Under the pieces are notes generated by a model. The model was given only the letters and a program-made list of their open reading frames with translations. It did not search any database and was not told the origin of the DNA. The translations under genes and the position numbers were made by a program. This document shows positions 19,433-19,662 of a stretch of 64,000 nucleotides of DNA, piece after piece. Position 1 is the first letter of the stretch; every line of letters begins with the position of its first letter. The stretch is from Escherichia coli O157:H7 (GTDB taxonomy: Bacteria; Pseudomonadota; Gammaproteobacteria; Enterobacterales; Enterobacteriaceae), in the NCBI RefSeq assembly GCF_013167455.1, contig NZ_CP038328.1; one strand, given 5' to 3'.

Positions 19433-19662
19433 GTTGTTGGCTGAGTGAATATACCCGGCGTTGCGCCGGGTCTGTGAACTAAGAATAAATTTTAGGTAAC
19501 TGTTCCTGAAGTACAGGCGTCATCGGCGAAGTCAGACCGGATACCGCCAGCGCACAGCAACCGGAGCGTACTTAAGTACGTGAGGATTGCGAGCACTGCC
19601 GGGATTCGGGCTGGCGAGTGAGATAGCCTGAGCAGGAGTAAATATAAGGGACATACTTAGCT

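Follow-up and report, generated by a model that had tools for sequence, protein, structure and literature searches.

The nuo operon of Escherichia coli O157:H7, as found in a stretch of 64,000 nucleotides (the whole of the DNA analysed, hereafter the window), raises the question of why nuoL and nuoM stand so far apart. By the ORF coordinates nuoL occupies 17591–19432 and nuoM 19663–21192, which places the spacer at exactly 19433–19662 and bears out the 230 bp given in a preliminary description of the locus. The spacer also outsizes the rest, as that description had stated: the A–B, B–CD, CD–E, F–G, H–I, I–J and M–N junctions measure 15, 93, 2, 46, 14, 11 and 6 bp, respectively, and E–F, G–H, J–K and K–L overlap. 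Its length is due to the presence of two hairpins, a short GC hairpin and a copy of a palindromic repeat of about 150 bp. The features of the spacer are listed below.

19433–19662, + strand: nuoL–nuoM intercistronic spacer, 230-bp "long" allele (from the ORF ends)
19453–19471, + strand: short GC hairpin with an 8-bp stem and a UUG loop, 20 nt past the nuoL stop (from sequence and fold)
19472–19500, + strand: A/U-rich linker between the hairpins, containing …GAACUAAGAAUAAAUUUUAGGUAAC…, predicted to be single-stranded (from MFE and centroid folds)
19494–19646, + strand: copy of a dispersed palindromic repeat of about 150 bp, probably RSA and distantly ERIC-like (from covariance model R1)
19501–19640, + strand: long irregular RNA hairpin of 140 nt (from the fold and the RNAalifold consensus)
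19561–19586, + strand: conserved apical module, near-invariant in 25 orthologues and 3 paralogues
19646–19665, + strand: nuoM ribosome-binding region, with the Shine-Dalgarno sequence AAGGGA at 19646–19651 and the ATG at 19663–19665 (from sequence and ORF)

Structure of the spacer

The whole 230-bp spacer folds at −89.1 kcal/mol (z = −4.58). The GC hairpin on which the preliminary description had focused is real, although it lies one base away from the coordinates given there, and reads ACCCGGCG-TTG-CGCCGGGT; what that focus missed is the dispersed repeat that makes up the bulk of the spacer, and the polymorphic, recombining nature of the locus. For the short hairpin the folding energy is −18.1 kcal/mol (z = −4.06), a stability matched by 0 of 200 shuffles. 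It has no U-tract downstream and occupies the slot that REP takes in other genera, with a similar hairpin in C. freundii and REP-type sequences in C. youngae, Raoultella and S. enterica. REP/BIME elements are GC-rich imperfect palindromes of 35–40 bp with the consensus GCCGGATG…CATCCGGC and a GTAGG tail; the 19-nt hairpin of the window does not show this consensus, though orthologous spacers have clear REPs at the same place. The linker that follows is unpaired or weakly paired in both the MFE and the centroid folds, and an AAUUUU(U)AG-like motif recurs 5′ of the hairpin in many genera. For the linker itself we infer only a candidate RNase E-type cleavage region.

The "further GC-rich stretches" of the preliminary description are present and correspond to the left and right arms of one imperfect palindrome 140 nt in length, a unit that had not been recognised as such. 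As RNA, this palindrome folds at −61.3 kcal/mol (z = −4.28), and its antisense at −53.0 kcal/mol. The helix spanning 19514–19630 is conserved across genera, while the basal helix (19501–19508 with 19633–19640) is lineage-specific. The 3′ end of the hairpin lies 6 nt 5′ of the nuoM Shine-Dalgarno sequence, which in turn lies 11 nt 5′ of the ATG and is found as AAGG(G/A)A at the equivalent position in 79 of 79 spacers. A second AGGAG (19634–19638) is hidden within the basal part of the long hairpin. The MFE structure also contains a long-range closing helix that pairs 19439–19447 with 19651–19662, between the Shine-Dalgarno sequence and the AUG; the window and Raoultella (−14.3 kcal/mol) both form a strong duplex here, which is weak or absent in other alleles and was set aside as not conserved. 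The + strand of the spacer contains no ORF of 20 or more amino acids. On the − strand, ORFs of 34–65 amino acids overlap the palindrome.

The apical module consists of an internal loop, CCGGA (19561–19565) opposite GAGGA (19582–19586), and a 6-bp stem, GCGUAC/GUACGU (19566–19571 with 19576–19581), closed by a G·U pair that is present in 23 of 28 sequences; the 4-nt loop at 19572–19575 is variable. In orthologues and paralogues alike the outer stems and the terminal loop vary while the apex stays near-invariant. The same 26-nt module is found inside otherwise unrelated long hairpins on contigs of 33–71% GC, including Comamonas and sX9-type (Xanthomonas) loci. The 23S sarcin-ricin loop has the sequence GUACGAGAGGACCGGAG. 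A comparison of the apex with a permuted form of that loop found the GAGA tetraloop missing and the strand order different, and the resemblance was treated as a coincidence.

Conservation across Enterobacterales

The element is present at nuoL–nuoM in at least 26 of the 79 Enterobacterales species surveyed, from about 13 genera, and also in S. enterica; this copy is an old syntenic resident across Enterobacteriaceae and Erwiniaceae. The preliminary description had named a lack of sequence conservation beyond the ribosome-binding site among the outcomes that would speak against its proposals, and here the spacer proves to be conserved beyond that site across genera, with covariation. The RNAalifold consensus has 36 pairs, 22 of which show compensatory changes. 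Paired cells make up 94.5%, a share attained by 0 of 500 shuffles (84.0 ± 0.6%), and the figure is 25–36% when the partner is slid, although the shuffle statistics overstate the significance of the pairing since related sequences are non-independent. In an independent metagenomic sample 29 of the 36 pairs covary, the invariance of the apex there being a product of construction, as the scan demanded the exact apex motif. The mRNA strand of the orthologues has 69 G·U pairs against 12 A·C mismatches, and on the + and − strands the nuoL–nuoM copy scores 165.1 and 28 bits, respectively, with model R1.

In 293 of 300 species pairs the element shows higher identity than the nuoM 4-fold sites do (means of 75% and 58%), and at the divergence between Enterobacteriaceae and Erwiniaceae the unpaired bases of the internal loops are conserved like the paired ones, far above the 4-fold sites. 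By these comparisons the element is under purifying selection, evolving more slowly than the neighbouring 4-fold degenerate sites. The conservation, the compensatory changes and the tolerance of G·U without A·C on the sense strand together imply that the constraint acts on the hairpin in the nuo mRNA, and the pattern points to selection on an RNA hairpin in situ.

The surroundings of the nuoM Shine-Dalgarno sequence differ between lineages. Nearly all spacers longer than 41 bp have some hairpin just 5′ of it; among these are unrelated short GC ones (Enterobacter, Pantoea) and a canonical ERIC (Serratia). Depending on lineage, the spacer contains REP, RSA-type or ERIC elements. In eight species the spacer is 24–41 bp long and has no hairpin, the Pluralibacter-type spacer measuring 27 bp, and relatives carry graded internal deletions of the element (L056, L028, L049 and the K-12 type).

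A dispersed repeat family

Model R1 matches 19494–19646 end to end over 153 positions. E. coli genomes have the repeat at 4–6 places each, with 77–80% identity. Paralogues of 147–154 bp at pheM-pheS, rlmL-ycbX, qseE-qseG, pyrH-frr and ucpA-cysP score 117–137 bits on R1; among them the copies at pyrH-frr and ucpA-cysP, on which the model was not trained, score 117 and 130 bits. With the pheM-pheS copy as query, K-12-derived genomes (KLY, a laboratory strain) have six places of about 153 bp, five of which were located: pheM-pheS, pyrH-frr, rlmL-ycbX, glrK-qseG and ucpA-cysP.

The RSA repeat of E. coli K-12, also known as BEE95, reportedly goes back to the annotation of the Blattner and Rudd era and to Bachellier and Hofnung in 1996. 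We know of no report of RNA-level conservation, selection or function for RSA-type repeats. The entry for RSA gives 150/151 bp and 6 copies (PMC5172473, Table 1), and both the unit length of about 150 bp and the six K-12 copies agree with the present family. The nuoL–nuoM repeat thus probably belongs to the RSA family, an equation that rests on length and copy number. NC_000913.3 has no repeat features at pheM-pheS or nuoL–nuoM, and its annotation is therefore uninformative on the name. An Rfam search of the spacer at E ≤ 10 returned only chance-level miRNA matches and a 16-bit sX9, and the repeat is absent from Rfam. The literature searched for nuoL-nuoM, for RSA/BEE95 and for ERIC plus nuo contained nothing on the nuoL–nuoM spacer. 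Delihas's "RU-3" was considered and is a different element, as its published sequence is a REP pair (BIME).

Between co-directional ORFs the orientation of the family is unbiased, with 8 sense and 12 antisense copies, the antisense E. coli paralogues being those at qseE-qseG and ucpA-cysP. This makes the family as a whole look like a strand-neutral palindromic repeat rather than a dedicated sense-strand riboregulator. Copies are also found on plasmids, and few lie in divergent promoter regions, as is the case for REP and ERIC. A MITE would have conserved terminal inverted repeats, a target-site duplication and a recent presence/absence pattern produced by insertion. Here conservation lies in the apex and variability at the ends, there is no evident target-site duplication, and the nuoL–nuoM copy is syntenic across genera. 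The "empty" K-12 allele resembles an interior deletion that retains the basal stem, not an unoccupied target.

Alleles within E. coli and a patch shared with Salmonella arizonae

Presence or absence of the element is seen within E. coli and within Citrobacter. The 230-bp allele is identical in 723–724 of 5426 complete E. coli genomes (13%), and the other 87% have no element; it is also identical in Salmonella arizonae-type genomes. Carriers of the long allele include O157:H7 and E. coli C, and Salmonella likewise has the element, S. Typhimurium with the full element in an allele of 250 bp. The majority allele, of the K-12 type, is 163 bp long, with a REP upstream and only a 14-nt mini-hairpin at the element's spot. 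An alignment of nine sequences defines by its informative sites one further feature:

19425–19736 at maximum and 19436–19689 at minimum, no strand assigned: patch by which long- and short-allele E. coli differ, with a sequence identical to that of S. arizonae

The patch is 254–312 bp long and includes four linked nuoM SNPs (19669, 19678, 19684 and 19689). Both E. coli and S. arizonae carry the allele with almost no diversity. The patch cleanly illustrates micro-recombination between species within a core operon, and the direction between donor and recipient could be either way.

Possible roles of the element

The preliminary description suggested three possible contents of the spacer: an element for mRNA processing or stability, a promoter inside the operon that serves nuoMN, or a partial attenuator. 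The length of the spacer and an A/T-rich stretch at 19476–19499 would suit an internal promoter, but the + strand has no sigma-70-type match (−35 and −10 hexamers with 16–18-nt spacing on the coding strand), and the sole match, on the − strand at 19669–19641, is at chance level (1 found and 0.5 expected). The conserved columns follow a helix with compensatory changes rather than −35 and −10 boxes, and species with 24–41-bp spacers express nuoMN without any such region, all of which makes a promoter in the spacer very improbable. An intrinsic terminator or partial attenuator that reduces nuoMN relative to nuoA-L can be given equally little credence. Two stable hairpins (−18 and −61 kcal/mol) would be in its favour, yet neither is followed by a U-tract, the nearest TTTT lies 22 nt past the GC hairpin, and 19433–19662 contains no terminator-like site and no leader ORF. 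NuoM and NuoN are, moreover, single-copy core subunits of the same complex. The sequence evidence fits, indirectly, only the remaining suggestion, that of an mRNA processing or stability element.

With moderate confidence we infer that the nuoL–nuoM element is co-transcribed and serves the structure, stability or processing of the mRNA. It would be transcribed through within a single nuoA-N mRNA, because the consensus scan found neither promoter nor terminator in the spacer, and would act as a passive structural module set 6 nt 5′ of the nuoM Shine-Dalgarno sequence. The GC hairpin, the A/U linker and the long hairpin would form a hairpin / single strand / hairpin arrangement, which could block 3′-to-5′ exonucleolytic decay into nuoA-L, cap a processed nuoMN segment at its 5′ end and hold the nuoM ribosome-binding site free of long-range pairings. 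Any such effect is likely to be small and dispensable, since hairpin-free spacers of 24–41 bp exist in some species. ERIC copies co-transcribed in Yersinia operons alter the stability of the flanking mRNA in an orientation-dependent manner (De Gregorio 2005, as cited in PMC2229807 and PMC3184786).

Two sets of observations sit uneasily with parts of this picture. The invariant internal loop CCGGA/GAGGA is left unexplained by a passive hairpin. The lack of the element in 87% of E. coli, the graded deletions in relatives and the unbiased orientation of the family likewise count against it.

Alternatively, the palindromic repeat may be selfish or neutral and have no role specific to the operon, being what remains of a mobile or gene-converting element of the ERIC/RSA type; we consider this explanation possible but unlikely. 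The spacer would then simply be prone to repeat insertion, and deletion of the whole repeat would cost nothing; the hairpin would be kept only because a palindrome left half broken in the mRNA of a 14-gene operon would do damage by misfolding, by occluding the ribosome-binding site or by exposing RNase sites. The presence/absence polymorphism in E. coli and Citrobacter, the graded interior deletions expected of unstable long palindromes, the hairpin-free short spacers, the occurrence of REP, RSA-type or ERIC in the same spacer by lineage, and the unbiased orientation, plasmid copies and paucity at divergent promoters all agree with such a repeat. Avoidance of misfolding does not, however, predict the conservation of unpaired internal loops, the least conserved part is the termini, with no target-site duplication evident, which is the reverse of a MITE, and hairpins with no relation to one another have converged on this site 5′ of the nuoM Shine-Dalgarno sequence. 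In a further reading the apical module would be a specific binding site read by a trans-acting factor (candidates are an RNA-binding protein, for example CsrA or ProQ, and an enzyme that acts on single-strand DNA and mobilises the family), making the nuoL–nuoM copy a regulated cis-element and not a passive hairpin. The near-invariance of CCGGA/GAGGA, with two GGA motifs 22 nt apart, beside variable loop and outer stems, the identical 26-nt module in unrelated hairpins over a 33–71% GC range and the same apex design in ERIC are in line with this proposal. CsrA sites are typically in a hairpin loop, and here the GGA motifs lie in an internal loop; the unbiased orientation of the family also speaks against a reader of RNA only, and the invariance of the apex in metagenomes was built in by the exact-motif requirement. 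A binding site appears quite doubtful.

Of similarly low probability is processing of the long hairpin by RNase III, which would divide the nuo transcript into nuoA-L and nuoMN segments. The hairpin, an irregular, roughly 55-bp duplex interrupted by internal loops, does resemble known substrates of the enzyme. In E. coli, RNase III sites occur commonly between cistrons and in 5′ leaders (PMC5371410). Two published K-12 sites near related repeats nevertheless fall outside those repeats: the pheM site (1799278) belongs to the attenuator, upstream of the pheM-pheS repeat, and the ahpC-ahpF site (639695) lies in a hairpin downstream of an ERIC copy, and neither was retained as a precedent. K-12 itself has no nuoL–nuoM copy.

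A broader proposal, which we advance as speculative and rather improbable, is that RSA-type repeats, ERIC and Xanthomonas sX9 form one beta- and gamma-proteobacterial superfamily in which the apical module, not the termini, is the dock of a trans-acting factor, and that the spacer copies are regulated cis-elements. The module may comprise the tandem G·A, the G·U-closed 6-bp stem and the flanking GGA-containing loops, and the docked factor may be an RNA-binding protein or a single-strand nucleic-acid enzyme. If so, copies in spacers such as nuoL–nuoM, pheM-pheS, pyrH-frr, lacZ-lacY and fadA-fadB-like ones would tune the stability or translation of mRNA segments, and the long and short nuoL–nuoM alleles would lead to differing NuoM/N dosage among E. 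coli lineages.

Whichever role applies, the cause of the long spacer is an ordinary one, a palindromic intergenic repeat of a family already listed in the 1990s. The full element, its graded deletions, the mini-hairpin, unrelated hairpins, ERIC and nothing at all form a natural allelic series 5′ of the nuoM ribosome-binding site, and this series is a ready test of the role of intercistronic hairpins in the stoichiometry of a 13-protein complex. As K-12, the reference for nearly all E. coli transcriptomics, has no nuoL–nuoM copy, K-12 data cannot answer the question of function.

Comparison with known systems

RSA shares with the element its length, its copy number in K-12 and its character as an intergenic imperfect palindrome in enterobacteria, the difference being that K-12 has no copy at nuoL–nuoM. 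REP/BIME elements of the malE-malF type likewise place GC-rich hairpins in the spacers of operons, where they are believed to block 3′ exonucleases, and REP is found in the upstream part of the nuoL–nuoM spacer in K-12, Citrobacter, Klebsiella and S. enterica. The hairpin at 19453–19471 is shorter than REP, however, and the main element, at four times the length, has no sequence relationship to it.

The operon has another conserved hairpin in a different spacer. The nuoG RNA is a candidate cis-regulatory element formed by a conserved enterobacterial hairpin (Rfam RF01748; Weinberg et al. 2010). Its only match in the window is at 12422–12464 in the nuoF-nuoG spacer (50.3 bits), and the nuoL–nuoM spacer has none. 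In contrast to the present element, the nuoG RNA is 43 nt long, single-copy, unrelated and not dispersed. The sX9 of Xanthomonas (Rfam RF02228) has been described as a separate small transcript, unlike the intercistronic mRNA segment considered here. The sX9 model spans the apex plus one arm; on it the window copy scores 16 bits (E = 4.8, − strand), below the 44-bit gathering threshold, and three metagenomic hairpins with the apical module score 49.3, 37.4 and 32.8 bits against the same cut-off of 44.

ERIC (IRU, 127 bp) differs in its arm sequences, in its length and in its copy number, about 10–20 per genome compared with 4–6 for the element. A search of the window for ERIC2 with up to 3 mismatches gave 0 matches, and the central consensus GTGAATCCCCAGGAGCTTACAT / AAGTAAGTGACTGGGGTGAGCG is not found in the element. 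ERIC is a unit of about 127 bp with TA-flanked terminal inverted repeats, whereas the element is about 150 bp long with variable termini and no evident TA duplication. In an alignment with canonical ERIC only the apex aligns, and ERIC copies score 16–20 bits on R1, compared with 117–165 for family members. Both are nevertheless long imperfect palindromes found in transcribed intergenic regions in both orientations. The apex of ERIC (GCUUAC/GUAAGU) and that of the nuoL–nuoM element (GCGUAC/GUACGU) both have the tandem G·A, the G·U-closed 6-bp stem and the tetraloop, and in Serratia a canonical ERIC copy occupies the very same nuoL–nuoM position.

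The nuoL-nuoM spacer and its two hairpins

The ORF ends place the spacer between nuoL and nuoM at exactly 19433-19662, which agrees with the 230 bp of the preliminary description, and the spacer is indeed unusually long for the nuo operon, whose remaining junctions overlap or measure at most 93 bp. The GC hairpin noticed earlier is also real; it starts 20 nt past the nuoL stop and folds at -18.1 kcal/mol (z = -4.06). What had gone unnoticed is that the bulk of the spacer is a single long imperfect palindrome, with a predicted fold of -61.3 kcal/mol as sense RNA (z = -4.28) and -53.0 kcal/mol as antisense. 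The resulting 140-nt hairpin is very stable and stops 6 nt 5' of the nuoM Shine-Dalgarno sequence, and a predicted A/U-rich single-stranded linker separates it from the GC hairpin. The entire spacer reaches -89.1 kcal/mol (z = -4.58), far more stable than shuffles. Like the unpaired internal loop, the 6-bp stem at the apex of the long hairpin is nearly invariant, and the tetraloop is variable.

Features of the spacer and the flanking genes
17591-19432, +, nuoL
19453-19471, +, GC hairpin ACCCGGCG-UUG-CGCCGGGU
19494-19646, +, the element, a copy of a dispersed palindromic repeat of ~150 bp
19501-19640, +, long imperfect palindrome forming the 140-nt hairpin
19561-19586, +, apical module of 26 nt (internal loop, 6-bp stem, tetraloop)
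CCGGA 19561-19565 and GAGGA 19582-19586, +, apical internal loop, unpaired, nearly invariant
19663-21192, +, nuoM

Two alleles and a patch shared with Salmonella arizonae

The 341 bp around the spacer are 100% identical in O157:H7 and other E. coli chromosomes. The 230-bp allele is carried by 724 of 5426 complete E. coli genomes (13%), O157:H7 and E. coli C among them, always with at least 99% identity. The remaining E. coli, including K-12, have a 163-bp allele of unrelated sequence, in which a REP is present and the place of the palindrome holds only the mini-hairpin GGUCCUGAUGGGAC. Differences between the alleles are confined to the spacer and four linked sites (19669, 19678, 19684 and 19689) within the first 27 nt of nuoM; in long-allele genomes nuoL through 19424 and nuoM from 19737 on are ordinary E. 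coli, and both alleles are flanked by identical NuoL and NuoM protein accessions. The spacer and nuoM's first 27 nt make up a patch of 254-312 bp within 19425-19736 in which four E. coli genomes share 100% identity with the type strain of Salmonella arizonae; four of five further arizonae-like genomes match this patch exactly (L012, L099-L107), while the genes flanking it are merely 83-94% identical between E. coli and arizonae. The patch is a short interspecies recombination tract in a core operon.

The repeat family

In almost every E. coli genome the palindrome core recurs at 4-6 other places with 77-80% identity.

Family copies in other E. coli spacers
pheM attenuator-pheS spacer
qseE/glrK-qseG spacer
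rlmL-ycbX spacer
pyrH-frr spacer
ucpA-cysP spacer

The training set of a covariance model, R1, consisted of the nuoL-nuoM orthologues plus three paralogues. With R1 the window copy reaches 165 bits on the + strand and 28 on the - strand; two copies outside the training set, pyrH-frr and ucpA-cysP, reach 117 and 130 bits. K-12-type genomes have six places of ~153 bp, which match the length (150/151 bp) and copy number (six) of the RSA repeat in the original K-12 annotation (PMC5172473, Table 1); we therefore take the element to belong to the RSA family, as judged by length and copy number alone. BEE95 is, according to a reference cited in PMC3751351, another name for RSA. Two other identities were ruled out: the ERIC core is unmatched and ERIC copies reach just 16-20 bits on R1, and RU-3 of Delihas is a REP pair. 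No family in Rfam 15 covers the element. Over the 64-kb window Rfam gives a single gathering-level match, to the nuoG RNA motif (RF01748, 12422-12464, +, 50.3 bits) of the nuoF-nuoG spacer, a second conserved intercistronic hairpin within the operon.

Distribution across Enterobacterales

Among nuoL-nuoM-nuoN loci from 80 Enterobacterales species, 79 spacers were measurable and ranged from 24 to 289 bp. The full element occupies the equivalent position in 26 of the 79, from Salmonella, Citrobacter, Phytobacter, Raoultella, Kosakonia, Enterobacter, Entomohabitans, Shimwellia, Siccibacter, Pantoea, Erwinia, Winslowiella and Mixta, and the common 250-bp allele of S. enterica contains it as well (162.5 bits with R1). 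The element has long been at this position. Other species form a graded series here: interior deletions that retain the element's basal stem are found in L056, L028, L049 and the K-12 type, and unrelated short GC hairpins take the element's spot in the Enterobacter 76-bp type and one Pantoea type. Spacers of 24-41 bp have neither the element nor a hairpin of any type; in nearly all longer ones, some hairpin ends a few nt 5' of the nuoM Shine-Dalgarno AAGG(G/A)A.

A 16-nt motif, GAATTCGTTGAAAATC, lies directly 5' of the hairpin and is strongly conserved in 'type II' spacers (L011, L041, L019, L016-L035, L098 and others), being found with long and short hairpins alike in K-12-type E. coli, Klebsiella, Citrobacter, Enterobacter, Kosakonia, Atlantibacter and S. 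enterica. The window allele has TTTTAGGTAAC in its place.

Evidence for selection on the RNA

The preliminary description had proposed conservation and covariation analysis of the spacer; the element proves conserved across species and its pairing covaries. Of 300 species pairs, 293 show higher identity in the element than at 4-fold degenerate sites of nuoM (means 75% versus 58%). RNAalifold gives one hairpin of 36 pairs, 22 of them with compensatory double changes. Cells paired on the consensus structure amount to 94.5%, compared with 84.0±0.6% for column shuffles (0/500 as high) and 25-36% for slid partners, figures that are not probabilities because the aligned sequences are related. Among 76 distinct copies sampled independently from metagenomes, aligned by fitting to R1 and with the apex fixed by the search pattern, 29 of the 36 pairs covary. 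On the coding strand of the orthologues there are 69 G·U pairs against 12 A·C mismatches (49 against 12 when one conserved wobble pair is omitted). This excess and the more stable sense fold together place the constraint on the hairpin of the nuo mRNA.

The nuoL-nuoM copy could instead be a passenger that is tolerated and kept paired to avoid harmful misfolding. Family orientation relative to flanking genes is unbiased (8 sense, 12 antisense, 8 convergent, 2 divergent) and, in E. coli, two paralogues run antisense to the operons they sit in, so that the family as a whole behaves like strand-neutral palindromic repeats of the REP/ERIC type. The invariant unpaired apex, however, speaks against a mere passenger.

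When metagenomes were scanned for the 26-nt apex motif, at least 120 stretches matched. Of 80 loci fetched (L110-L189), ~45 are full-length relatives and ~30 are different long hairpins, on contigs of 33-71% GC, whose similarity is limited to the apex and a handful of flanking motifs; their outer stems differ in sequence and are still paired. The module AACCGGAGCGUAC-N4/5-GUACGUGAGGAUU is set in otherwise different hairpins of 120-170 nt (for example L116 1343-1437, L183 ~830-1000, L132, L175, and L142 with three tandem copies). Scored against sX9, a Xanthomonas sRNA family in Rfam, some of these hairpins attain the gathering threshold, with the match on the opposite strand. Copies of the apex type are also present in a fadA-fadB-like spacer of Comamonas and on plasmids of enterobacteria. 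The set has the look of a superfamily for which the apex, not the termini, is the defining feature, and such a pattern hints at a common trans-acting factor. Full-length copies were also seen in relatives' lacZ-lacY (L124, metagenome) and apt-dnaX (L134) spacers and in an MFS transporter-acyltransferase spacer of K. oxytoca plasmid pKOR-e3cb (L230, 2946-3100). The 240-kb contig OIEP01000019.1 has four family copies, so some species must be far richer in them than E. coli.

Proposed function

Three roles had been suggested for the spacer. Its + strand contains no sigma-70-type promoter match and no small ORF, the spacer has no terminator-like site, and no U-run comes after either hairpin; the internal nuoMN promoter and the partial attenuator are therefore unsupported. 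The sole survivor is a stability or processing element, to which the conservation and covariation of the hairpin lend indirect support. One antisense sigma-70-like match (ATAACA-17-TATATT, 19669-19641, -, 9/12 positions) points into the spacer, at chance level (1 found, 0.5 expected).

The element would most likely be transcribed through within the nuoA-N mRNA, where the order GC hairpin, A/U linker, 140-nt hairpin would form a classic layout for selective processing and stabilisation. The linker may be open to endonuclease, the GC hairpin may protect the 3' end of the upstream segment, and the 140-nt hairpin may protect the 5' end of the downstream segment and keep the ribosome-binding site of nuoM out of long-range pairing. 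Since the element is missing from 87% of E. coli and from several genera, its effect must be dispensable. Where RNase III sites have been published close to related repeats, they fall outside the repeats. The K-12 ahpC-ahpF spacer (L094) has an inverted ERIC at 225-345 and a separate hairpin at ~380-430; RNase III site 639695 is not in this ERIC, lying in the separate hairpin downstream.

Comparison with known systems

The spacer anomaly is real and is explained by a known kind of element. Interest is moderate, and current understanding is not overturned by these findings; a conserved, covarying hairpin absent from Rfam, a natural allelic series 5' of nuoM and a patch identical to S. arizonae merit follow-up. 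The apex-sharing hairpins, with conserved apex and variable ends, show the reverse of the MITE pattern. The element and ERIC have the same apex architecture, in which a stem is followed by tandem G·A, a 6-bp stem closed by G·U and finally a tetraloop. One and the same nuoL-nuoM position holds the RSA-type element in Enterobacteriaceae and Erwiniaceae and, in four Serratia species (L060, L061, L077, L085), a canonical ERIC (…AATCCCCAGGAGCTTACTAAAGTAAGTGACTGGGGTGAG…) just 5' of the nuoM Shine-Dalgarno. In Yersinia operons, co-transcribed ERIC copies are described as altering flanking mRNA stability in an orientation-dependent manner (De Gregorio 2005, as cited in PMC2229807 and PMC3184786), and by analogy they are the closest experimental precedent for the nuoL-nuoM element.
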